64,000 nucleotides of DNA from Terriglobia bacterium (GTDB lineage: Bacteria; Acidobacteriota; Terriglobia; JAJPHL01). Within the stretch, counting starts at the first letter, position 1, and each line of letters opens with the position of its first letter. The DNA lies in the NCBI GenBank assembly GCA_963747095.1, contig CAVVEL010000022.1, forward strand, positions 3,959 through 67,958. The letters run 5' to 3'. A program made the translations under genes and the position numbers. The notes beneath the pieces were generated by a model. It did no database searches. It had not been told where the DNA came from and was given only the letters and a program-made list of their open reading frames with translations. Below, in pieces: positions 1 to 19,860 of this stretch.

Positions 1-285
1 TTCCGGGTCCAGGCCCGGCACGGCATACACGTGAACGTGAATATCGACAAGACCCGGAGTCACATACAGGCCCTTGCAGTTGACGGCGCGCCGGGCCGAG
101 GCGGCGGGAATGGTTTTGGCTACGCGGGCAATCTTGCCGTTGGCGATGGCGACGTCGAAGATGTCGTTGCGGCGATTTTTGGCGTCAATCACGTGGCCGC
201 CTTTGAGCAGAAGGTCGTATTGCGGGGTCTGCGCCGAAATCGGGCAGGCGCAGCAAATGAAAGCGAGGATGGCCGCAAATCTCAT
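1..285 (-). CDS. amidohydrolase-family protein, N-terminal part (gene continues past window start)
   Basis: Minus-strand translation from ATG at 285..283 reads MRFAAILAFICCACPISAQTPQYDLLLKGGHVIDAKN...GLVDIHVHVYAVPGLDPE: signal peptide followed by the HxH metal-binding start of the amidohydrolase fold. Start codon overlaps the stop of the upstream MFS gene (ATGA). Not in the ORF track because it is truncated by the window edge. Confidence 0.55.
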   Translation of the reverse strand, partial: MRFAAILAFICCACPISAQTPQYDLLLKGGHVIDAKNRRNDIFDVAIANGKIARVAKTIPAASARRAVNCKGLYVTPGLVDIHVHVYAVPGLDPE

Positions 286-1520
286 AATGCTTCTCCGATC
301 TTTCCCGGCACCAGGAGCAGATAGGACAGGCAACCGAGCACCAACACAACTCCGGTGAAGGATAGCGCCACGCGAAAGGAGCCGGTTACATAAGCGATAT
401 AGCCGGTGAGCGCCGGCGCGATGATGCCGCCGATGTTGCCCCAGAAGTTTTGAAAGCCGGCCAACGTGCCGATCCATCTGCGCGGCGATATGGCGCTGGT
501 AATGGTCCAGGTATTGGGCGAGGCGATTCCCAGACCGATCAGGGAGACCGTCAACAGGGCCACGCACTTGTAGGGACTGGAGACCATTCCGGCGGGCACG
601 ATGAAGCAGCCGATCAGCAGGCCGGCGGTCAGAAAAATCTTGCGGGTTCGAACCTCTTCAAAACCGAGCGCGATCAAACGGTCGCTGAGGTATCCGGCCG
701 CGGGCATGGCGATGGACATACAAACCAGGGGCAGGGAAGCGAAGACGCCGGTCTGTTTCAGCGAGAAGTGCCGCTCCAGCGTCAAGTAGCCGGGCAACCA
801 TGTGGCATAGACGTACCAGGCGTAGTCATAACAAAGAAAGCCCAGGGAAACGCCCCACGCGGCGCGGTGGCGGAGCAAGGGTCCGAGCGCCGCGAGGGTC
901 AACGGCGAGTTGGCCGGAGCGCTGGGCTTGGCCGCTAGCGGGTGCGCGCGGAAGAACCAGAACCACACCAGCAGGAACGGCAATCCGGCGAAGCCGGTAA
1001 TTGCGAAGAGCGCCCTCCAGCCGTACGCGGACAACAGAATCGCGCCGCCCGCCGTTACGGCGATGATGCCGGCCCGCACGCCGACCGTGTAGATGCCTGT
1101 TGCCGTGCCTCGCTCCGATGCGGGAAACCACAGGGCCACGGCCCGGGTGCTGGCCGGAAACACCGCGGCCTGGCCGGTGCCGAGCAAAACGCGCATTGCC
1201 AGCAGCGCTCCAAAAGACCCGGTCAATCCAGACGCCGCGCAGGCCAGAGACCAAAGTAGAAACGACCATGCATAAAGAACCTTGACACCCACGCGATCCA
1301 CCAGCCAGCCCAGCGGCACCTGCAACAGCGCATAGGGCCAGAAAAATGCCGACTGCAGCACGCCCATGGACAGCGTATTCAAATGCAATTCGCGGATCAT
1401 CGCCGGCGCGGCTACCGAAAGCGCCGTGCGATGGATATAATTGAAGGTCAGTCCGGAGAACAACAAGGCTAGCAGCGTCCATCGGCCGGTGGGCGCGGCG
1501 GTCTCCGAGGGTGTTTCCAT
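282..1520 (-). CDS. MFS transporter (anion:cation symporter / sugar-acid type)
   Basis: 412-aa ORF with a multi-TM hydrophobic profile and typical MFS loop motifs (LVDRVGVKV, GLTGSFGALLAMRVLLGTGQA). Confidence 0.8.
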   Translation of the reverse strand: METPSETAAPTGRWTLLALLFSGLTFNYIHRTALSVAAPAMIRELHLNTLSMGVLQSAFFWPYALLQVPLGWLVDRVGVKVLYAWSFLLWSLACAASGLTGSFGALLAMRVLLGTGQAAVFPASTRAVALWFPASERGTATGIYTVGVRAGIIAVTAGGAILLSAYGWRALFAITGFAGLPFLLVWFWFFRAHPLAAKPSAPANSPLTLAALGPLLRHRAAWGVSLGFLCYDYAWYVYATWLPGYLTLERHFSLKQTGVFASLPLVCMSIAMPAAGYLSDRLIALGFEEVRTRKIFLTAGLLIGCFIVPAGMVSSPYKCVALLTVSLIGLGIASPNTWTITSAISPRRWIGTLAGFQNFWGNIGGIIAPALTGYIAYVTGSFRVALSFTGVVLVLGCLSYLLLVPGKIGEAL

Positions 1521-1554
1521 GGACTGGAATTGTATACCACATAAGGAAATTTCG

Positions 1555-1573
1555 TGATATCTAATACATCAGA
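1555..1573. promoter_or_regulatory. AT-rich recurrent motif, site 1 (TGATATCTAATACATCA) between the divergent MFS and IolB-like genes
   Basis: Seen directly. Member of the 12-copy TGATAT-N5-ATATCA family. A TAATAC hexamer ends 7 nt before the ATG at 1575, so the transcript may be leaderless. Confidence 0.45.
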
Positions 1574-1574
1574 C

Positions 1575-2342
1575 ATGACTCCAGCCGTCAAACCAGCCAA
1601 ACGATTTCCGGCGGATTCCGCCACCGCCGTCTACCGCCAGCGCTTTACACCGGCGGCGGCCAACCTGCTCTTTCTCAGTTGGGGAGAGTTCGATGTGCCG
1701 GGCGGAGGCGCGTCGGGAGAAACGACGATTCTTGGGCAGGAGATCCTTCTGTTCATGTGGAAAGGCTCGGCCGAGGTTCACGTGGCCGACGCGGTTTACG
1801 ACTTGCAGCCGTACGACACTTTGTATGTCACCCGCGACTTGCCTTTCCGGATCGTCAATCCCGGCCCCGATCGCGCCGTGGTTTTGCAGGCCTCTGCGCC
1901 GGCGGAGAAACGGCATCCCGTCTTCCATTCGCGCTTCACGGAATTTTCGAAGTGCGAGGAGCGCATCCGCCACCTCAAGGGCAAAGACGTTTACATGATG
2001 TTCGATGTCAGCGAGGGCGCCGACAAGCTGATCGCCGGATATACGTTTTTCCAGCCTTTCCAGAGATCCTGGCCGCCGCACAACCACACCGATCAGGAAG
2101 AAGCGTACTTCTTCATCAAGGGGCACGGTTCCATGGAGGTTTATGAATCGCCCGAGACGTTGAGCTTTGTGCACAACGTGCAGGAGGGCGACGTGGTGAC
2201 CATTCCGATGCTCAACTATCATCCGGTTTTTTCGCAAGAAGACCCGCTGGAGTTCATCTGGTGCATCGCCGGCGAGCGATATTGGGTGGGCGACAAGAAC
2301 AAGGCGTTCATGAATGGTACAGGACCTGCCATTACCACGTAG
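1575..2342 (+). CDS. bicupin sugar isomerase, IolB (5-deoxy-glucuronate isomerase) / KduI-like
   Basis: Start is ATG 1575 rather than the track start 1554. Cupin motif WPPHNHTDQEEAYFFIKGHG and VVTIPMLNYHPV resemble the IolB/KduI families. Family-level call only. Confidence 0.5.
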   Translation: MTPAVKPAKRFPADSATAVYRQRFTPAAANLLFLSWGEFDVPGGGASGETTILGQEILLFMWKGSAEVHVADAVYDLQPYDTLYVTRDLPFRIVNPGPDRAVVLQASAPAEKRHPVFHSRFTEFSKCEERIRHLKGKDVYMMFDVSEGADKLIAGYTFFQPFQRSWPPHNHTDQEEAYFFIKGHGSMEVYESPETLSFVHNVQEGDVVTIPMLNYHPVFSQEDPLEFIWCIAGERYWVGDKNKAFMNGTGPAITT

Positions 2343-3549
2343 CGCCGCCCCCGCGGATCTTCGGGGCAATCTGCTGGTGGCTCACGGCGGAGGTCCCACG
2401 GCCGTGATCAACTCATCGCTCTATGGTGTGATCCAGGAGGCATCCGGCCTGGAAGCGATCGACGGCGTTTATGGTGCGCGGTTCGGAACCGCGGGGTTGC
2501 TGAGCGGCGATTGGATTGATCTGCGCCGCCAGCCGCAGGAACAGGTCGAGGCACTGAAGCACACTCCCGCGTCGGCTTTAGGCAGCAGCCGACGAACCAT
2601 CGAAGACGGTGACTACGAATGCATCTTGGATCATTTTCGCCGCCAGGATGTCCGCTTCTTCCTGTTCAACGGCGGTAACGGAACCATGCTGGCCGCGGCC
2701 GAACTGGCGCGGCGGGCCGTTGCACAAGGCTATGAGTTGCGGGTGATCGGAATCCCCAAGACCGTGGACAACGACTTGGCGGGAACGGATCATGCCCCCG
2801 GCTACGGCAGCGCGGCCCGCTACATGGCCGTGACGGCTCTGGAGTTGGGCCGCGACAACCAGGCTCTTCCCTTTCCCGTTTGTATCTTCGAGGCCATGGG
2901 ACGAAACACCGGATGGCTGGCGGCGGCATCCACGCTGTTTGCGCGCCACGCCGATGATGGACCGCAACTGGTTTACGTGCCGGAGATTCCTTTTCACCGT
3001 GAGCAATTCCTGGCGGACGTGGAGGCAACGTACCGGCGCACCGGGCGCGCCTTCATCGTGGTGAGCGAAGGAATCCGCGACGAGCAAGGCGAGTTGTTTG
3101 TAACCTCGCTGGCCACCGATCGGGATGGATTTGGGCGGCCTCTGCCGGGCAATGTCTCGGTGCACCTGGCGGGTTTGGTGGGAAAGGAATTGCGGCTGCG
3201 TGTACGCAACGAAAAGCCCGGATTGTGCGCCCGCACTTCCATGGCGCATGTGTCGGCGACGGATCGCGCCGAAGCGGAAGAGTGCGGCCGCTATGCGGTG
3301 CGCGCGGCTGTCGCGGGGAACAGCGGCATGATGGTCAGTCTACGGCGCGCGTCCTATGATTCCGATTCCTCCCATACTTCCTATTGCTGTGAATACGCGT
3401 TAACGCCGCTCGACGATGTCGCCGGCCGCGAACAGCGCTTGCCAGTGGAATGGTTCAACGCAGAAGCCCGCCAACCAGGCCGGGCATTCTACGATTATGC
3501 CTTGCCGTTAACGGGCGATGACATTCCGCGGCACGCGCGCTTCAATTAA
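2314..3549 (+). CDS. pfk: 6-phosphofructokinase (PfkA family, ATP- or PPi-dependent)
   Basis: GGGPTAVINSSLYGV and IGIPKTVDNDL are hallmark PfkA motifs. About 29-nt overlap with the upstream gene. Confidence 0.8.
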   Translation: MVQDLPLPRSAAPADLRGNLLVAHGGGPTAVINSSLYGVIQEASGLEAIDGVYGARFGTAGLLSGDWIDLRRQPQEQVEALKHTPASALGSSRRTIEDGDYECILDHFRRQDVRFFLFNGGNGTMLAAAELARRAVAQGYELRVIGIPKTVDNDLAGTDHAPGYGSAARYMAVTALELGRDNQALPFPVCIFEAMGRNTGWLAAASTLFARHADDGPQLVYVPEIPFHREQFLADVEATYRRTGRAFIVVSEGIRDEQGELFVTSLATDRDGFGRPLPGNVSVHLAGLVGKELRLRVRNEKPGLCARTSMAHVSATDRAEAEECGRYAVRAAVAGNSGMMVSLRRASYDSDSSHTSYCCEYALTPLDDVAGREQRLPVEWFNAEARQPGRAFYDYALPLTGDDIPRHARFN

Positions 3550-3704
3550 CAGCCCTCTTGGGAAACCGCTGTTGCAGGCACACGACTTACCCTCCGCGAA
3601 CTCTCGAAAATGGTCGAAAAGCGGCGGGAACTGCGAAAGTTAGGATAGACCAAGCCAACGGGACCCCAATCGACCGGGACTCCGGTGTCGTCAGAAGGAC
3701 TGCT

Positions 3705-3840
3705 GGTGGGCACGTCGAGCCCCTGAACATCACCGCAGCGGTACAACTCGCGAGCGAACTCGGTCCCGGCAAGATCGTCACGACGGTGGTAGCGGACACG
3801 GGACTGAAATATCTCGCCGGCAACCTGCTTGCCAAGGCAA
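3705..3840 (+). pseudogene. 3' remnant of a cysteine-synthase/CBS-like PLP enzyme gene
   Basis: The translation NITAAVQLASELGPGKIVTTVVADTGLKYLAGNLL matches only the C-terminal ~45 aa of CysK-type enzymes (GISSGAA...IVVILPDTGERYLST). No upstream body. It sits in a read-through ORF (3558-3962) between pfk and the IS element. Confidence 0.35.
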
Positions 3841-4115
3841 AACTCGGCGCCGGCGGTCCTGCGGATCAGATTCGCTCGTGCAACGGGTTTTGCCGCGCCT
3901 CCAAACGCTATTACCGATGCGCTATTCCCACATACGCCGTCCTAAAGGCATTGGCCCCATAGAATCAGGGAATTAGCCTCGGCTCAGGCGACCTTCAGAA
4001 ATAGCACAAATCTGGCTCAAATAAGCTTCAGGCAAAGTTTCCCCAACCGCCAAGACTTCCTCGGCACCCAGGCCTGATTGTCGTTCCTACGCGCTACTGC
4101 GCGAAGGAGATGACG

Positions 4116-4199
4116 ATGAAGAAGCTTCAGATGGTTCTGGGCAGTTTGTTCCTGGTTTTGGCGCTCGCACAGATGGAGAACGCACAAACCGTTGTTCCA
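4116..4199 (+). pseudogene. 5' fragment (RBS + signal peptide) of a secreted retropepsin-like aspartic protease gene, cut by the IS630 element
   Basis: AGGAG RBS 6 nt before ATG 4116. MKKLQMVLGSLFLVLALAQMENAQTVVP is a Sec signal. The reading frame is interrupted exactly where the IS terminal inverted repeat starts. Confidence 0.45.
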
Positions 4200-5439
4200 T
4201 TCAAACTAGTGTATCGTTTCATTAAAATATCATCTCATCAAGAGACTCCGAACTTCCTCCACCGGTGGACCACGGGGGCCGCATTGATCTCGGCGATGCC
4301 CAGCAGGATACGGTCTCGCAACTCTTCCCAGGAGTGGACCCGAATGTGCTTGAGGAAAGTCCGCGCCATCTTGCCAAATAGACTCTCGACGATATTGAGC
4401 CAGGACCCATGCGTAGGCGTCAGGACGTAGTGGAAACGGTTGGGGCGGGTCGCCAGCCACGCTTGGGTTTCGCGGGAAATGTGCGAGGAGTGATTGTCCA
4501 GGATCAGACGGATGGAGCAGTCCGGCGGATAGTGGTGATCCAGGTCTTGCAGCAGGGCAATGAATTCAATGCTGCGATGGCGCCGCTCGACGCGCGCCGT
4601 AACGTGCCCGTCGTGCAGATCCAAAGCCGCCAAGATCGAGCAGGTCCCCAAGCGTTTGTATTCGTGGTCGCGGGTGACCGTGGGATGCTTGCCGGCAACG
4701 GGGGGCAGGTCTGGCGCGGTGTTGGCGATGGCCTGCAAGCCGGGTTTCTCATCCACCGAAACCGTGACCACCGGCAGGATCTGGTCGGAGGCTTGGCGCC
4801 CTTCATTCCGCAGGGCCACCGCTTGGTAGACCAGCAGGACATTGCGCATCTTCTCTTCAAACCGCGGGTCGCGCCGCTCCAGATAGTATTGGATCCGTTC
4901 GGGGTGCAGGGGTTGGTCGGCCAGAATGCGATGGACGGTGGCCTTAACGGCCCTGCCCAGGGAAGGATGGCCAGCCTCCACGGCGTGGGTTCGAACATGG
5001 TTGGCCAGAGCGCTCCGCGTCCACAGTTCGGCCGCATAACCGAGATCTTTTGGTTTCGTGCAAGCCACATGAACCACCCAGACCCGCGCTTCCTCGGTGA
5101 TGACGGGTTCTTTGGGACGATGCCAGGTGTCCTTCAGTGCGGCCAGCGGCCCCATCGCCAACGCTCGGTTGACCCATTTGGCAACGCTCTTTCGCGTTGT
5201 CCCCATGTTTCTGGCAATTCCGGCTACCGTCTCGCCGGCCGCGTAACGCAACAGGATCTGCGCCCGCTGCACCTCCCGGATCGGTGCCTTGGCCGACTGT
5301 CGAATCCGTTGTAGTTGCGCCTGTTGTTCCGGCGTCAGGTTAAGCTTCGGTCGTCGCGATTTGCCTGCCATGCTTTCAGCATAGCAGAAAACAGATCCAA
5401 CAGAATATGTTTTATTGAAACGCTATACTAGTTGACGGC
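4198..5439 (-). mobile_element. IS630-family insertion sequence (~1.24 kb) with imperfect ~28-bp terminal inverted repeats
   Basis: Left end TCAAACTAGTGTATCGTTTCATTAAAATA (4201-) and reverse complement of right end TCAACTAGTATAGCGTTTCAATAAAACA (-5438). Single transposase ORF inside. Local GC is lower than the flanks. No clean TA target duplication could be identified. Confidence 0.7.
4238..5371 (-). CDS. IS630-family DDE transposase
   Basis: N-terminal HTH (RAQILLRYAAGETVAGIARNMGTTRKSVAKWVNR) and C-terminal LILDNHSSH...LTPTHGSWLNIVESLF signature of IS630/Tc1-like DDE_3 transposases. Confidence 0.85.
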   Translation of the reverse strand: MAGKSRRPKLNLTPEQQAQLQRIRQSAKAPIREVQRAQILLRYAAGETVAGIARNMGTTRKSVAKWVNRALAMGPLAALKDTWHRPKEPVITEEARVWVVHVACTKPKDLGYAAELWTRSALANHVRTHAVEAGHPSLGRAVKATVHRILADQPLHPERIQYYLERRDPRFEEKMRNVLLVYQAVALRNEGRQASDQILPVVTVSVDEKPGLQAIANTAPDLPPVAGKHPTVTRDHEYKRLGTCSILAALDLHDGHVTARVERRHRSIEFIALLQDLDHHYPPDCSIRLILDNHSSHISRETQAWLATRPNRFHYVLTPTHGSWLNIVESLFGKMARTFLKHIRVHSWEELRDRILLGIAEINAAPVVHRWRKFGVS

Positions 5440-6195
5440 TATGTGATTATCGTGCAGGGAAGCATCGGAAACCTGGAGAGGCTGAGCTTTATTGTGGACA
5501 CCGGCACCTTCCCCACGGTGATTGACTCCGGCGTGACCGCCAAACTCGGCTTGCATGGCAAGCCGGATGCGGTGAAAGGCTTCGCGGCGAATGGGGTTGG
5601 TGAGAGGCTGACACTCCCCGGCTTGCACCTGGGGTCGGTAGATGCCGATGACCTCCCCGTCATTTCGTTTGATCTTTCGTACCTCCAAAAGGCACTTGGG
5701 GTCCACATTGACGCGTTGGTCGGGCCGGATGTGCTCAGCCGCGCCGGCACCTTCAAGATTGATTATCAGTCGCGCACGCTGGCGTTCGGCGACCAGCCGT
5801 CGTATGGACCAACGGCCTTGAGCCGCCCGTCGGCGCGGATGACTCCGGTGCCGTTCGAGAACCTGGGCATCATTAACGTGCAGGTGGGATATGCCGCTCT
5901 GCGGTTGCTCATGGACACGAGAACTGGCCAGTTTGTTCTTTTCAACAGCGGCAAGGCCCTGGAGATTGGCGGGACCCGCGTAATCGCCGCGAATACCTCG
6001 CGGGGAGATTTCAAGCATGACCGCGTTCAGCTTCCTCCCGCTCGTGTTGGAGACACAGATCTGGGGATGCCCATCGCGGTCGTCGATTCGTCTCCTCACT
6101 CGCCCTTGATTGATGGCGTCTTGGGTCCCGCGTCGCTCAAGGTTCGCAGCGTGGAATTCGATTACAACCACGGCTTGGTCTCTTGGGTGAGGTAA
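5440..6195 (+). pseudogene. 3' part of the IS-disrupted retropepsin-like (clan AA) aspartic protease gene
   Basis: VIIVQGSIGNLERLSFIVDTGTFPTVIDS carries the D-T-G aspartic protease motif. Joining 4199|5440 restores an in-frame signal-peptide + protease protein (...AQTVVP|YVIIVQG...). Confidence 0.5.
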
Positions 6196-6278
6196 GGAAG
6201 AAGAAGCGATCCACAGATTCCGCAGATTTCGCAGATGAGAACAAGAAGCAGATTAGAACAAGAAAAGGATTAGCCGTT

Positions 6279-6345
6279 GATCAACACGGATCAAACGCGG
6301 ATCAACGCGGATCACATCGATTTCTTCGTTGGTTTGATCCGCGTT
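6279..6345. repeat. four tandem ~10-11-bp repeats (GGATCAAnnCG) plus an inverted copy forming a 12-bp perfect stem (CAACGCGGATCA...TGATCCGCGTTG), upstream of the CadC-like regulator gene
   Basis: Seen directly in the low-GC region 6196-6500, which also contains GCAGAT and AGAACAAGAA repeats. The 10-11-bp periodicity is typical of winged-helix (OmpR/CadC-type) binding-site arrays. Confidence 0.5.
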
Positions 6346-6501
6346 GCTCCTTGCAAGTACGTGGCTGGTTTCTTCTTAATCCGCGAAATCTGTGGAATGT
6401 GTGGACGGGTTCTTTCGACCTGCGGTTTATATTTGCGCTCCCAAAGCTGGTACCTGGGTGTATGATGGCGGCATCGATTTGACAGACTGGGAGTCCGCGA
6501 A

Positions 6502-8632
6502 GTGGAGAGCGAGTTTCAGATTGGGACGTGGCTGGTTCAGCCGGACCTGAACTGCATCGTGGACAATGGCCGCAGGGTGCGCCTCGAGCCGAAGACGATG
6601 GAGTTGCTGGTCTGCTTGGCTTCGAGCGCGCCACAGGTGATGAGCAAGGAAGCACTGCTGGCCACGGTGTGGTCGGGGACCTTTGTCGGCGATGATGCGC
6701 TGACGCACGCCATATTCGAATTGCGCAAAGCGCTGGGCGACGACGCGCGCGAATCACGCGTGATCGAGACCATTCCCAAGCGTGGCTATCGCCTCAGTGC
6801 GCCAGTCCTACGCACCCACGGCCAGGATGCCAGTGCCACTGGGCCCGCAATCGCGCCAAGCCCCGCGTGGCGCCGCGGATTGCCGTGGGCAGTTGTCGGC
6901 GCGCTGGCGGGAGTCCTGATTGCTGCTGCCCCCATTTCTGCTGCTGCGACCGTCCGCACCCGCCAAGCCCGCGCCGCTGATCCATTTTGTCATTACGCCG
7001 CCGCCGGATGCACCGATCACCGGCGCTCTCGCGATCTCGCCGGATGGCAGTGAGATTGTCTACAGGAGTGAGTACCACGGACAGGCGCGTTTGTACTTGC
7101 GCTCGCTGGACAATCCCATCGTCAAGCAGATTCCTGGAACCGAAGACGCAACCCGCCCTTGTGTCTCGCCGGATGGGAAATGGGTTGCGTTCGTTGTTCC
7201 TGATCTTGGAAAGCGCGACGGGGAAGCAGAGGCCAGGGATACGCCGATCTACAAAGTACCTGTAGCGGGTGGAGAAAGGGTTTTGATCGCAAGGCCGGAT
7301 GGTGTTGTCGGCGGATTAAGCTGGACTTTGGACGGCATCCTCGCCGGCACGAAGCGGGGGATCTTTCGTTTGGCTTCGGCCGGGGGCGAACCAAAGCGAT
7401 TGACACAAGTGCAAAAAGGGGAAGACTGGCATGCAGCGCCGCAACTGCTTCCGGGCGGAAGGGCACTGCTGTTCACGATTGTCGGGTCTGGGTCTCCCCG
7501 GGCACAACGGGTAGCGCTCAAGGAGTTGCCTGACGGGCAACCGCGCGTGCTTCTCGAAAATGCATCTGGCGCGCGCTATCTCCCTATAGGGGAATTGCTT
7601 TTCAACCGCCGGGGACGGCGATACGCCGTGCCATTCGATCTGGAACACCTTCAGCTTGCAGGAACGCCTTGGCCGGTTTCGAGTCCGGATGGGCCGATGT
7701 CGGAGAACGGCACGCTCGCCTACACCTCGCCGGCGGCAGAAACCAAAACCGAAGCGGTGTGGGTGAACCGGCAAGGGCTTGCGTACCCCGTTTCGTCCTC
7801 GCTACCTCAGGGCGCGATGGCGGGCCCGGAGATTTCGCCCGATGGACGACGCATGGCTTTTCTCCAGGGAGACGGTATCTGGACGTTTGACTTTGAGCGC
7901 GAAGTGCCTGCGCTTCTTGTTTCCGACCCCACTATTGAACCACCCGTCTGGACGCCGGATGGTCACCGGCTCGCCTATACCAGGCAAGGATCTGTCTATT
8001 GGCGGCCGGTTGACGGGAGCGGCCCGGAAGAGCGGCTCGCGCGGCCGGACAACACCGGACGCAGAGGTACCCAATATCCCATATCCTGGTCCCCGGATGG
8101 CCGCGTCCTGGCTTTGACTGACATCGATCTATTTACATTCTTTGACCGCAAGATTCTGCTCTTCTCTTTGGATACCCGCACGCTGCGGCCTTTTCTCCAA
8201 GAACAATTTCACTCGCAGGTCGCCGCTATGTTTTCGCCCGACGGGCACTGGATCGCCTACGTTTCCGATGAATCAGGCCGATGGGAAGTACGGGTGGCTG
8301 CATATCCACAACCGGGACCGCAATTTCAGATCTCGAACGAGGGTGGCGCCGAGCCGCGATGGTCACGCGATGGCCGCGAATTGTTTTACCGCAACGGGCA
8401 AAAAATGATGGAAGTGAGGATTACCACGCAGCCTGCGTTCAACGCTTCCCGCCCGCGGCTGCTATTCGAGGGCTACGAGAACGCGAAAGGGCGGGATGCC
8501 AATTATGATGTTTCACCCGACGGGAAGGAGTTCCTGATGATTCGCGCCACGGGCTCCGCGCCTCCGGGCCAGATCCACGTGGTGCTGAACTGGTTTGAGG
8601 GGCTGAAGAAGGTATTAACGAGTGAGAAGTGA
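6502..8632 (+). CDS. CadC/ToxR-like membrane-anchored transcriptional regulator (OmpR-type winged helix + TM + periplasmic TolB-like PD40 beta-propeller); frameshifted near 6940-6990
   Basis: N-terminus LEPKTMELLVCLASSAPQVMSKEALLATVWSGTFVGDDALTHAIFELRKAL...IPKRGYRL is a trans_reg_C domain, followed by a TM helix. The continuation in the +1 frame (ORF 6920-8632) has PD40 repeats (SPDGKWVAF, SPDGRRMAF, SPDGHWIAY). The frame change lies near a C5 run, so this is either a genuine frameshift or a sequencing error. Confidence 0.6.
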
Positions 8633-8639
8633 AGCTTTC

Positions 8640-8850
8640 CGCTACGGAGCTTGCGACCGATCTGCCTCCGGTCGTTTTCCCGCAATTCGGCAAATCCGAG
8701 TTTCAATCGTCTACCTCGATGACGCATTCCTCCGGCATCACCGGTGGAATGTTTCAATGGAGACGCTCGCCAGCCGGGTCCGGCATTCCTCAACTACGCG
8801 CTGCCGTTAACGGGGCAGACATTCCGCGGCACGCGCACTTCAATTATTCT
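8640..8850 (+). pseudogene. decayed 3' remnant of a second pfk copy
   Basis: 8750-8850 aligns at ~80% nt identity to pfk 3440-3549. This includes the near-identical CCGTTAACGGG..GACATTCCGCGGCACGCGCNCTTCAATTA, but a 1-nt indel shifts the frame. Weaker homology extends to ~8640. Confidence 0.5.
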
Positions 8851-9303
8851 TAGCGCCTTGCTGGATCCACTGGGCGATCAAGTGGTTCTCCGCGGGGCTG
8901 AGACCCTTGCCATACGGGGGCATAGGGTCGCCCGCTCGCGGCTTGGCCGACAACTTATTCATCAGGAAACTGTCGTTGGGGTCGTCGGCCTTTACCAGGA
9001 ATTGTTTGCCCGAAAGCGTTCCCTTCTGATTCACCAGGGTCGTGTAGGCGCGATCCTGGCTGAGGTCCATGCCTGGCCAGTGGTCCTTCTGAAAGTGGCA
9101 GGCCATGCAATGGTCTTGCAGGACCGGTAGCACGTCGCGCCGGAAACTGACCACGCGCGTGCCATGCGCCCCGCCCGGCGAAGCGGCAGCCGGCTTGGCG
9201 GCGGGTTTTGACGTGGGCGCGGACTTTGCCGCGGCAGCTTGCCCGGCGAGCCATCCAGCGCCGCAAAGAAGCATTACGCAGACAGTTGTGATTCCTCTCT
9301 TCA
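8840..9303 (-). CDS. small exported mono-heme c-type cytochrome (PSCyt1-like, CxxCH)
   Basis: Probable start MKRGITTVCVMLLCGAGWLAG is a signal peptide. VLPVLQDHCMACHF (CxxCH) and DPNDSFLMNKLSA...MPPYGKGLSPAENHLIAQWIQQGA resemble the Planctomycete-type cytochrome C domain. Last gene of a minus-strand operon. Confidence 0.55.
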
Positions 9304-10893
9304 TTAGACCTTGTGCTCCGGGTGCTGACACCCCTTGAATTCCGACTCGTACGTGTTGCCCTTGTAGCCCAACTCTTCGATGAGACCTTGCGGCGAAGCG
9401 TAGTATCCCCGCACCACCAGCCCCCGAATGCCGCTGAAGAACTGCATCGCGGGCCGGTCGCGCTCGGCGATGCCTTTGCCCGTGAGGGCGGTCAGGAATT
9501 CGATCCTCTGGGCCGATGACAGCGCGGAAAATGCTTTGCCGTAGTGTTCCGTCACCATTTCCCGGAAGCGCGCCATCTGGCGGCGCGTGGCGTCATAGCG
9601 GTCCGGATCCATCCAGAGCATGAAGTCGGCGTATTCATCGGCGCGAGCCGCCAATGCTCCCGGCGTGTTGGTGACCGGGACAATGGTATCGGCCAGCGCC
9701 GACACGTCGCGATATTCTTCCGGGGTAAAGAAGAGCGGCGCGAAGTTGGGATCTTGAGGCGGCAGCGGCGTCACCGGACGGCCGCGATGCTCGCGCATGT
9801 CATGGGTCACGGCCTGCATGGGATTGCTGTTGTCGGTTGGCGCAAACGACGCCGGACGCAGCAAGGCGGCGGGCTGCGTCATGGCCGCGCCTATGACGAC
9901 GAGGTCTTGCAGCAATCCACGGCGGGGATGGTGATGCTCGGCGGGTTCCTCGCGAACTTCCGCTACTTCCGGGCCGGCGGCCTTGATGGCCGCTGCCATG
10001 TGCGGCTCCAGAAACTTGCGGCTTTGCCCGGCGTCCGCTTCGGGAGACTTACGCACATTGTCCTGCTGAACGCTGACCCAACCGTTGTAACTGTATTGCG
10101 CGAGTGCGGTGAGCACGGCCCCGGAGTTGATCTTGCCGGCGCCGGCGGGGGCATCCTGCCAGTCTTTACCGTTGGCCACGCCATCGCGCAAGTGGATGTG
10201 CACGACGCGCTGACCGTAGGCCTTGATCATCGGCACGGGATCGATGCCCAGGCGCGTCAGGTATTGGGTGTCGAAGCAGAGCTTGGTATAACGGCTGTCG
10301 GAAGTGGCGATGATCTTGCGTACGTCGGCGGCTTCCATTTCGCGGAACCGGTAGGCGCAATGCAGGCCGGTCTCTTCATAAACCAGCGCGCCGATTTCCG
10401 ACATGTTGCTGGAATAGACATGGTACGTTGGCGCGTCCTTCGGGGCATCGCCCCAAATGCCTTCCAGCACGAAGATTCCGCAGCCGAGAGATTGCAGCGC
10501 GCGCGCCAGCAGCACGGCGCGGCTGATGTTCTTGATGCGGTCGTCGCGCTTGGCGAAATTGCCGGTCATCGAGGCCGTCACCAGACCAAGACTGTGGGTG
10601 TCCAAGAGCTTCTTGAAGTCATCGGTCTTTTCCCGATAGTCCCACAAGTCGTCCCCGTGGACTTCCACCCAGGTGTAGCCGGCGGCAGCGACGCCGGCCA
10701 GGGCCGCAGGCAGGGCCACGCCCTGCTTGCGCCACGCCGCGGTGGAGCAGGCCAGTTTGAGTCCCCGGCCGGCTTCGCTGGCCGGGTGGAACCCGGTGGC
10801 ATGTTGCGGTTGCGGAGTTTCGGCGATGGCCGAGCCGGCGGCGGCAGCCGTCAGGGCGCTGGACTTCAGGAATTGGCGGCGATTAAATCCCAT
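9304..10893 (-). CDS. Tat-exported fusion protein: xylose-isomerase-like TIM barrel (sugar phosphate isomerase/epimerase fold) + gluconate 2-dehydrogenase subunit 3 (GMC-dehydrogenase small-subunit) domain
   Basis: Twin-arginine signal MGFNRRQFLKSSALTAAAAGSAIA. The TIM-barrel region runs from LKLACSTAAWRKQG to GIDPVPMIKAYGQRVVHIHLRD. The C-terminal ~170 aa (FFTPEEYRDVSALADTIVP...FLTALTG...VVRGYYASPQGLIEELGYKGN) matches the Gluconate_2-dh3 family. Confidence 0.7.
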   Translation of the reverse strand: MGFNRRQFLKSSALTAAAAGSAIAETPQPQHATGFHPASEAGRGLKLACSTAAWRKQGVALPAALAGVAAAGYTWVEVHGDDLWDYREKTDDFKKLLDTHSLGLVTASMTGNFAKRDDRIKNISRAVLLARALQSLGCGIFVLEGIWGDAPKDAPTYHVYSSNMSEIGALVYEETGLHCAYRFREMEAADVRKIIATSDSRYTKLCFDTQYLTRLGIDPVPMIKAYGQRVVHIHLRDGVANGKDWQDAPAGAGKINSGAVLTALAQYSYNGWVSVQQDNVRKSPEADAGQSRKFLEPHMAAAIKAAGPEVAEVREEPAEHHHPRRGLLQDLVVIGAAMTQPAALLRPASFAPTDNSNPMQAVTHDMREHRGRPVTPLPPQDPNFAPLFFTPEEYRDVSALADTIVPVTNTPGALAARADEYADFMLWMDPDRYDATRRQMARFREMVTEHYGKAFSALSSAQRIEFLTALTGKGIAERDRPAMQFFSGIRGLVVRGYYASPQGLIEELGYKGNTYESEFKGCQHPEHKV

Positions 10894-18399: not shown

Positions 18400-19860
18400 A
18401 TGCGCTATGGCTTCATACTAGATCAACGAAAATGTATCGGGTGCCACGCCTGCACGGTGGCCTGCAAGACCGAAAACCAGGTGCCGGTGGGCAGCTTTCG
18501 GACCTGGGTCAAGTACGTCGAAAAGGGAGAGTATCCCGAGACGCGCCGACACTTCGGCGTAATGCGCTGCAATCACTGCGAGAATGCGCCGTGCGTCAAG
18601 ATCTGTCCTGTGAATGCGTTGTATACTCGCCCCGACGGCATCGTGGATCTCGATGGCGACAAGTGCATCGGCTGCCAGTCCTGCATGCAGGCTTGTCCCT
18701 ACGACGCCCTCTACATCAACCCCGACCGGGGGGTGGCGGAGAAGTGTCATTTTTGCGCGCATCGCGTGGAACGCGGGCTGGAGCCGGCCTGCGTGATCGT
18801 GTGCCCCGTGCAGGCGATCGTCCCGGGAGACCTGGACAATCCGCAGTCGCAGATTTCGCAGCTTGTGGCGCGCCTGCCGTCCCAAGTCCGCAAGCCGGAG
18901 CAAGGGACACGGCCCAAAGTTTTTTATCTCGGCGCGGATCAAGACGCCATTTCTCCCGGCGGCAACAGCGACATTCCAGCCTCCTATCTGTGGTCCGAGG
19001 GCCCAGCGGAGATTCTCCAGCAGTTGATGGACCCGGCGCAGCTTCCGGCCACGCACGAAGTATACAACGTGAGTCACGCGAAGTCCTGGGGCTGGCATAT
19101 TTCCGCCTATCTCTGGACAAAAGCGATTTCAGCCGGTGTGGCGATTGTGGGCGCAATCGGAATGATGGAATCCCCAGGAAGAACGGATCGCCTGGCGCCG
19201 CTACTCAGTTTGATTTTTCTGGCGATTACCACGGCGTTGTTGATCGGCGATCTAAAGCGTCCGGAGCGTTTCTGGCGACTGATCCTGGCGCCGAACTGGA
19301 CTTCCTGGCTGGTTTGGGGCGGATACATTCTGATGGCTTTCGGCGGTGTGGTCAGCTTGTGGTGGCTGTGGGGCAATCCGCCACCGTGGTTGCTGCTTGT
19401 TAGTATTGTGCTAGGCGCGGCGGCGGCGGGATACTCGGCGTTCCTGTTCGCACAGGCGGAAGGCCGCGACTTCTGGCAAAGCCCGTTGCTTTTGCCGCAT
19501 CTGGTGGCGCAAGCGGTGGTCGCCGGAGCCGGCGTTCTGATGATCTGCGGATCGGCGCGACCCGCGAGTCTCGGCCTGTGGCTCGCCGGCGGTCTTGCCG
19601 TGCACCTGCTGATGATCTCTGGCGAAGTAGCTGTTCCGCACACCAATTCCGACTGCGCGCAGGCGGCCCGGCACATCACGCATCGGCGGCGGGCGTCCTT
19701 TTGGCTGCTGGCCGTCGGTTTGGGAGCGCTCGCGCCCCTGCTGTTGATAATCTTGGTGGGCGAAGCCGGCTATCGGCCGGCGGGTTTACTCGCAACGGCC
19801 GGACTCTACGTATACGAACATTTATGGATCGAAGCGGGACAAGTGGCTCCGCTTAGTTGA
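18400..19860 (+). CDS. complex iron-sulfur molybdoenzyme electron-transfer subunit: four-cluster ferredoxin domain (PsrB/NrfC-like) fused to an NrfD/PsrC-like integral membrane anchor
   Basis: Four Cys clusters (CIGCHACTVAC, CNHCENAPCVKICP, CIGCQSCMQACP, CHFCAHR...CVIVCP). The C-terminal ~300 aa has about 8 predicted TM helices. Confidence 0.75.
   Translation: MRYGFILDQRKCIGCHACTVACKTENQVPVGSFRTWVKYVEKGEYPETRRHFGVMRCNHCENAPCVKICPVNALYTRPDGIVDLDGDKCIGCQSCMQACPYDALYINPDRGVAEKCHFCAHRVERGLEPACVIVCPVQAIVPGDLDNPQSQISQLVARLPSQVRKPEQGTRPKVFYLGADQDAISPGGNSDIPASYLWSEGPAEILQQLMDPAQLPATHEVYNVSHAKSWGWHISAYLWTKAISAGVAIVGAIGMMESPGRTDRLAPLLSLIFLAITTALLIGDLKRPERFWRLILAPNWTSWLVWGGYILMAFGGVVSLWWLWGNPPPWLLLVSIVLGAAAAGYSAFLFAQAEGRDFWQSPLLLPHLVAQAVVAGAGVLMICGSARPASLGLWLAGGLAVHLLMISGEVAVPHTNSDCAQAARHITHRRRASFWLLAVGLGALAPLLLIILVGEAGYRPAGLLATAGLYVYEHLWIEAGQVAPLS

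Follow-up and report, generated by a model that had tools for sequence, protein, structure and literature searches.

The 64,000-nucleotide stretch analysed here, hereafter the window (positions 3,959 to 67,958 of contig CAVVEL010000022.1 of a Terriglobia bacterium), harbours on its plus strand a gene, pfk (2314..3549), whose predicted product of 411 amino acids (aa) is assigned to the PFK family by a match to PF00365 (E=8.5e-45; 153.7 bits, with 30.9 as the cut-off; positions 2-276 of the 277-position profile). The last 35 codons of this gene up to the stop codon (3442..3548) recur on the same strand at 8741..8846 as a decayed copy, which adjoins a small convergent gene encoding a CxxCH protein. 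Between the two copies we find a 3' fragment of a cysK-like gene, a protease gene split by an insertion sequence of the IS630 family, a low-GC repeat region and a frameshifted regulator gene. This content agrees with a first-pass annotation of the window, which had described the segment as a rearrangement scar and a patchwork, a description borne out by synteny with a relative. The comparison reveals an old insertion of about 5.2-5.3 kilobases (kb) into the 3' end of pfk, which has left the displaced and decayed tail of the gene behind in its native position.

Local alignment of positions 3300-3600 with 8600-8900 delimits the direct repeat to 3442-3548 and 8741-8846, i.e. 107 and 106 nucleotides (nt), at an identity of about 80%. 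The copies differ by 21 substitutions and a single 1-nt deletion, the latter located in the second copy. While the first-pass annotation had rightly reported both the degree of identity and the frame-breaking indel, its boundaries (3440-3549 and 8750-8850) have to be revised accordingly. A repeat search splits the pair into two parts (D1, 74 nt, 77%; D5, 29 nt, 97%) whose one-base offset is the 1-nt indel. Within the terminal part, the last 29 nt contain a single mismatch; the last 47 nt carry five substitutions, the stop-codon position (TAA/TAT) counted, in addition to the indel. The tail of the intact gene translates as PVEWFNAEARQPGRAFYDYALPLTGDDIPRHARFN* and the remnant as PVECFNGDARQPGPAFLNYALPLTG up to the 1-nt deletion (GGC GAT to GG- GCA), which breaks the frame, and then as ADIPRHAHFNYS*; its former stop codon TAA has become TAT. 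In tblastn the two copies yield an in-frame protein match (PVEWFNAEARQPGRAFYDYALPLTG / PVECFNGDARQPGPAFLNYALPLTG, E=3e-11). The homology is confined to the last 35 codons and its edges are sharp at both ends of the repeat. A tblastn search with the C-terminal 150 residues of either pfk protein returns the terminal 35 codons only, and a comparison of 8560-8740 with pfk positions 3250-3441 scores 8 at a shuffle mean of 9.1, so that the weaker similarity formerly proposed to extend back to about 8640 is not supported. Likewise, no homology was found past the stop codon of the repeat copies. The 108-nt spacer between the stop codon of the regulator gene and the remnant (8633..8740) bears no similarity to pfk or to the rest of the window.

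The remnant overlaps a 74-aa open reading frame (ORF; 8629-8853), the GTG start of which overlaps the regulator stop (GTGA) and which runs through the remnant initially in another frame than that of pfk and later in the pfk frame. One gene caller accepted this ORF, which is also called as a gene in the independently assembled Logan contig L012 (see below), and the fraction of G and C at third codon positions (GC3) amounts to 0.61 overall and to 0.68 in its first 37 codons. We consider this ORF probably spurious rather than a gene.

That the repeat merely reflects chance, or a low-complexity GC-rich motif common at gene ends, is a reading to which we assign practically no likelihood, and it was rejected on four grounds. 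The local alignment scores 107 compared to 18.3±2.3 for 300 shuffles, the best of which reaches 28; the protein match mentioned above is in frame; the 46-nt terminal segment occurs a single time in the 64-kb window even if up to three mismatches are allowed; and the remnant is positionally orthologous to the pfk end of the relative described below. The suggestion that the final 45 nt might constitute a recurring att-like site could not be upheld either, as neither the window nor the JGI metagenomes contain a further copy and the insert encodes no recombinase. An exact search of these metagenomes with the 26-nt core shared by the two copies gave one match only, at positions 96-121 of an unrelated low-GC contig (L010), whose context looks coding and translates as ...DDIPRHARFKL...; this match was judged to be due to chance.

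The closest relative of the pfk protein among 5.8 billion proteins is encoded on the 61.5-kb Logan contig L003 and is 75% identical from residue 1 to the end; this contig, representing one genome, is the sole comparator on which the synteny rests. Its gene order is MFS (minus strand), pfk (plus), a 143-aa gene (minus), an AP_endonuc_2 (TIM)/Gluconate_2-dh3 fusion gene (minus), Tricorn/PD40 (minus), GFO_IDH_MocA, GntR, Aldedh and LarA, which is also the order in the window, with gene-by-gene aa identities of 64-89%. In L003 only 22 nt separate the stop codon of pfk from that of the convergent 143-aa gene, the counterpart of the CxxCH gene, which is followed by the TIM/Gluconate_2-dh3 operon; this is the result of the synteny check that the first-pass annotation had suggested. 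Positions 8741-8960 of the window are collinear with the 3' ends of L003 pfk and of the convergent gene. Conversely, the intergenic region that separates MFS and pfk in L003 has a conserved counterpart in the window, where it lies ahead of a KduI/cupin gene which precedes pfk. Since both junctions match those of L003, the intact pfk has kept the ancestral 5' context and the remnant the ancestral 3' context, with about 5.2 kb inserted between them. The ancestral pfk extended from the promoter on the MFS side up to the point where it met the small CxxCH gene tail to tail. Less similar relatives of pfk (P0003, P0004 and P0010) lie in unrelated contexts, in which pfk is followed by a gene of about 283 aa, and for this reason cannot polarise the event. 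A scan of a genome collection with pfk yielded only a 44% identical relative from Faecalibacterium, which gives no synteny information. No chimaera of pfk and the remnant was encountered, either as a protein or as a contig, in the searches for pfk relatives.

On the strand of pfk and not more than 90 nt past its stop codon starts what remains of a PALP/cysteine-synthase-like gene, namely about its last 65-70 codons (3639..3845, plus strand). Residues ~28-96 of the ORF 3558..3962 gave 86 phmmer matches at E<=1e-3 among 1.84 billion representative proteins (best 5.7e-9); these align at the C-terminal ends of proteins of about 310 aa, and all six that were checked belong to PF00291 (PALP). In the PDB eight of nine matches are cysteine synthases, though at marginal E-values of 0.012-0.8, and the fragment itself has no Pfam match. 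A 28-nt blastn match between 3667-3694 and a site at about 52292 in the window (E=0.002) was taken as insignificant.

Further downstream, a gene for a retropepsin-like protease is present in two parts, 4110..4208 (plus strand; 33 codons with a signal-peptide-like N-terminus) and 5431..6195 (plus strand; PF13650, PF13975). The 1220-base-pair element that separates them (4209..5428, minus strand) has the properties of the IS630/Tc1-mariner group: a transposase gene (4238..5371) whose product contains a DDE_3 domain (PF13358, E=1.8e-21) and N-terminal helix-turn-helix (HTH) domains, terminal inverted repeats of about 23 nt, and a duplicated TA (4207-4208 and 5429-5430) within a CTAG target. Removal of the element together with one TA joins the two parts to an in-frame ORF of 287 aa of the Asp_protease_2 type, and the alignment with a homologue crosses the junction (VVPFKLVDGYVIIVQGSIG vs VLPFKMGGRQLILVQGSIG). 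Homologues of the rejoined protein share at most 35% identity with it and cover 90-97% of its length. Judged by the restored reading frame, a single protease gene is split by the IS630 insertion. This insertion is a later, separate event, which accounts for the split protease but not for the pfk repeat. The transposase falls into a cluster (>=90% identity) whose seven members are encoded on several long contigs. Two Logan contigs from one and the same run (L002 and L012, ERR11523662) are 100% identical to window positions 2238-4233 and 5404-9684, respectively, and both end inside a copy of the element. Because of these contig ends and the seven-member cluster, the element is probably multicopy and was recently active in this genome. 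Both junctions of the insert are thus reproduced by independently assembled contigs, while the link across the insertion sequence is secured by the protease reading frame.

Between the protease stop and the regulator start lies a region of low GC (6190..6430; GC 0.52) which is rich in inverted repeats (I1, I3, I12 and I16) and may fold into an imperfect hairpin of about 220 nt, with outer arms at 6201-6236 and 6379-6414 and an inner palindrome at 6279-6350. Its minimum free energy is -101.5 compared to -65.7±4.9 for shuffles (z=-7.3). The region resembles a miniature inverted-repeat transposable element and is left unclassified; it has no Rfam match and no other copy in the window. The regulator gene that follows (6502..8632, plus strand) comprises two ORFs, 6502..7053 with PF00486 (Trans_reg_C) and 6920..8632 with PF07676 (PD40), which align to two parts of one and the same 750-aa protein (P0207), residues 28-110 and residues 187-743, respectively; the 3' end is complete. 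The reading frame changes by +1 where the two ORFs overlap (6920-7053), the probable site being close to a run of five C at about 6930, and the change is present in contig L012 as well. The predicted protein shares with ToxR/CadC the N-terminal winged helix (wHTH), one transmembrane segment and a large extracytoplasmic C-terminal domain; it differs from CadC in that the sensor is a PD40/TolB-like β-propeller instead of the CadC periplasmic domain, and in that the gene is frameshifted. Since a homologue search with the propeller leads into a huge paralogous family (best identity 42%, mostly Ser/Thr kinases bearing the same propeller), the origin of the insert cannot be traced via this domain. 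The IS630 insertion and the frameshift represent later damage, independent of the event that duplicated the pfk end. As for the remainder of the insert, Pfam searches of all sizeable ORFs between the repeats detected DDE_3 transposase, Asp_protease_2 and Trans_reg_C/PD40 only; no integrase, excisionase or other tyrosine or serine recombinase was found, and the remaining gaps are too short for an integrase gene. Scans of 3300-9400 for Rfam families, tRNAs and terminators gave nothing relevant. The GC3 of the insert genes (0.64-0.76) shows no anomaly compared to that of the flanks (0.69-0.79).

To place the separation of the two tails in time we compared them with the L003 gene. Over the repeat, pfk and the remnant are 80% identical, pfk and L003 68.5%, and the remnant and L003 62%. 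Since the mutual identity of the copies exceeds their identity to L003, their separation must postdate the divergence of the L003 lineage. With L003 used to polarise the changes, ten map to the remnant branch, including the replacements W->C and R->H of conserved residues, two map to the pfk branch, and nine are ambiguous; this imbalance marks the remnant as the dead, faster-evolving copy. With its frame shifted, its stop codon lost and its evolution accelerated, the remnant is non-functional. At the same time, 13 of the 21 substitutions occupy codon position 3 (p=0.007 against a uniform distribution), and nine of the changed codons are synonymous and eight non-synonymous.

This pattern bears on the possibility that the repeat arose in situ, by a duplicative insertion in which break repair or template switching captured an outside segment (cysK fragment, protease and regulator) at the junction of pfk and the CxxCH gene. 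The last 107 nt of the host gene would thereby have been copied to both sides, the left copy staying under selection and the right one decaying neutrally. We regard this course of events as unlikely, though it deserves serious consideration. A single such event would suffice for both junctions and for the 5'-truncated cysK fragment that follows the pfk stop directly, a recombinase would be unnecessary, and the native-like composition of the insert is in agreement; furthermore, the ratio of ten to two changes comes near the approximately 4:1 expected if one copy evolves neutrally and the other by synonymous changes only. Simulated immediate neutral decay (20 substitutions placed on the 35 codons, with mutation and codon bias ignored) gave on average 8.2-8.5 changes at third positions (12 observed), 11.4-11.6 codons with an altered amino acid (8 observed) and 5.0-5.3 synonymous codons (9 observed). 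Third-position and synonymous changes hence exceed those expected from neutral decay, although with P≈0.05-0.07 for these three statistics, which are correlated, the in-situ origin is disfavoured only marginally. If, in the simulation, decay of the remnant sets in only after half of the divergence or later, the observed values fit well (P 0.2-0.8). Furthermore, the differences are unevenly distributed along the repeat, with 16 in the first 60 nt and five in the last 47 (Fisher p=0.05, a post hoc and marginal result), whereas those between pfk and L003 are spread evenly (18 vs 15). Finally, an in-situ duplication would end at the stop codon by coincidence only. Taken together, the substitutions mildly suggest that the two tails diverged inside functional genes and that the present tail, or the whole left part of the locus, came from another lineage, which we infer to be closer than L003.

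Two tails shaped by selection would also be expected if pfk had been duplicated, in tandem or nearby, and the second paralogue, located beside the CxxCH gene, had coexisted with the resident gene for a time and had then been overwritten or deleted save for its last 35 codons. This was one of the two alternatives offered by the first-pass annotation. The substitution pattern is compatible with two copies which both were coding for a period, and the remnant is indeed nearer to the resident pfk than to that of L003. We nevertheless consider a lost paralogue quite improbable, as no fewer than three events would be required: the duplication, the insertion, and a deletion with a left boundary that happens to coincide with the stop of copy 1. 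Moreover, no other pfk-like sequence is present upstream of 8741 or elsewhere in the insert, and none of L003, L004, L007 and L008 possesses two adjacent pfk genes. The other alternative of that annotation, an integration that regenerated the pfk end, is the one best matched by the genomic context and the 35-codon homology.

A foreign origin of the whole left part, and not of the tail alone, would imply that a fragment from a sister lineage, comprising KduI, pfk, the truncated cysK, the protease and the regulator, overwrote the native pfk except for its last 35 codons. The exchange would have proceeded by homologous recombination on the MFS/promoter side and by illegitimate recombination between 8740 and 8741, i.e. 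by homology-facilitated illegitimate recombination. It would account in one step for the presence, in this genome only, of KduI between the conserved operator region and pfk, and it would explain the coding-like divergence as well as the end of the homology at the stop codon. However, the identity of pfk to its L003 counterpart (75%) is like that of the neighbouring genes (64-89%) and shows no step along the gene, a donor with the arrangement KduI-pfk was seen in no relative, and the truncated cysK demands a still earlier rearrangement in the donor. In our view a replacement of this extent is very improbable.

The explanation we favour is that the insert brought along its own, already diverged pfk tail, which was joined to the host gene by a single crossover; our confidence in this falls slightly short of even. 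The incoming DNA would have been a circular or recombining molecule carrying a diverged pfk 3' end that finished precisely with the stop codon. One crossover, whether site-specific or homologous (Campbell type), would have completed the host gene with this replacement end and moved the native end to the far side of the insert. Any recombination machinery would subsequently have been lost, and later reworking would have trimmed the cysK-like gene down to its 3' fragment, split the protease gene by a recent IS630-family insertion and introduced the frameshift into the regulator gene. A replacement end is further supported by the shape of the repeat, which stops exactly at the stop codon, as is not expected of an arbitrary in-situ duplication. 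Several observations speak against this scenario. The insert is devoid of any integrase, excisionase or other recombinase, its sizeable ORFs being those of the transposase, the protease and the regulator, and it has nothing foreign-looking in its composition, as both GC and GC3 match the flanks. The 5'-truncated cysK directly after the replacement end is unlike a tidy integrative element. The preference over an in-situ duplication rests on 21 substitutions and is marginal, and there is only one comparator genome. Neither the pfk searches nor the search of JGI metagenomes with the core returned an empty site or an intermediate from a closer relative, and no relative of this pfk was found among viral contigs.

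The integration of DNA into the 3' end of a gene of central metabolism has a well-known precedent in the cryptic prophage e14 at icd/icdC of E. coli K-12, as related for Hill, Gray & Brody 1989 in PMC13626634. In strain MG1655 we measured a repeat of 165 nt with 92.7% identity and no indel, 11 of the 12 differences being at position 3; its upstream edge is sharp and its homology stops at the stop codon. The arrangement in the window is alike in these last features and in the third-position bias. It is alike, too, in that the insert lies inside the gene's 3' end, that the flanking direct repeat supplies a diverged replacement end which completes the gene (here copy 1, completing the 411-aa pfk), and that the displaced 3' fragment is found at the far end of the insert beside the original downstream DNA, with an uninterrupted site in a relative (L003 only). 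In contrast, e14 measures 15.2 kb, contains intE, xisE and phage genes and still excises, whereas the present insert of 5.2 kb has no phage gene, and no tyrosine or serine recombinase according to Pfam on its sizeable ORFs. In addition, the remnant is older here (80% identity, one frameshift, stop codon lost), and the att segment recurs neither in the window nor, apart from the one chance match, in JGI metagenomes, nor in viral contigs. Lacking a recombinase, unlike e14, the insert was not classed as an integrative element. Its scar has the geometry of one, and by analogy the insert is possibly an eroded relic of such an element.

Glycolytic gene ends are likewise used for integration by ICESt1 and ICESt3, which reside in the 3' end of fda in Streptococcus thermophilus (PMC3234194). 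These elements share with the present insert a glycolytic-type gene 3' end as insertion point, flanking direct repeats and a gene that is kept intact; they differ by their integrase, excisionase and conjugation modules and by short identical att repeats, none of which is found here. It is conceivable, yet most improbable, that the pfk 3' end is the attachment site of an unrecognised kind of integrative element of Acidobacteriota which carries replacement gene ends. In that case the 3'-only cysK fragment, being in the same orientation, would represent a second "spare end" from an earlier target, and such elements would hop between the 3' ends of metabolic genes.

Irrespective of its mode of origin, the locus is an ordinary old rearrangement scar of a known kind, involving no new mechanism or system. 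It documents, in a genome that the source names of the best matches of the propeller and the protease mark as probably acidobacterial, that DNA could be inserted where two convergent genes of a conserved cluster for sugar-acid catabolism nearly abut, with neither gene lost. The order of events can be read from it, the old insertion having been followed by that of the IS630-family element and by the frameshift. With at least four separate lesions within 5.3 kb and a KduI gene just upstream which is absent from the relative, it was fairly called a hotspot of plasticity. As regards annotation, 8741-8846 should be designated a pfk pseudogene fragment, and the protease and regulator genes should be marked as disrupted.

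On the left side, the syntenic flank is formed by the MFS transporter gene (282..1520, minus strand; PF07690, E=1e-56), which is 78% identical at the aa level to the L003 gene divergent from pfk. The adjoining region, 1521..1575, contains a motif common to the MFS-pfk intergenic region of L003 (GGAATTGTATAYCAC...TTTCGTGATATCTAATACATCAGA; 9943-10000 in L003), which marks it as a conserved divergent promoter and putative operator; the motif may serve as operator to the cluster's GntR-family regulator. The KduI/IolB-type cupin gene (1554..2342, plus strand; PF04962, PF07883) probably starts with the ATG at about 1575, and the 29 nt at its end overlap the beginning of pfk. It has no tblastn match in L003. 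As it is placed exactly between the conserved promoter region and the pfk ATG, it represents a precise gain or loss of one gene at the other end of pfk.

On the right side, the gene of the 163-aa CxxCH protein (8840..9331, minus strand) is 64% identical in aa sequence to the 143-aa gene after pfk in L003, and its end overlaps the last 7 nt of the remnant. The label "PSCyt" given to it previously was not confirmed, since the protein has no Pfam match at E<=0.01; a CMACH (CxxCH) haem-binding motif is read in the translation only. Next to it, the right syntenic flank is formed by the gene of a TIM-barrel/Gluconate_2-dh3 fusion protein with a TAT signal (9304..10893, minus strand; PF01261, PF13618; 74% aa identity to L003). 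At some distance from the insert, the first 225 residues encoded by ORF 18400..19860 (window positions 18400-19075; 20545-21219 in L003, where the gene is of the Fer4/NrfD type) are 95.6% identical to L003. Compared to 64-89% in the neighbouring genes, this may reflect either an unusually strong conservation or a more recent exchange.

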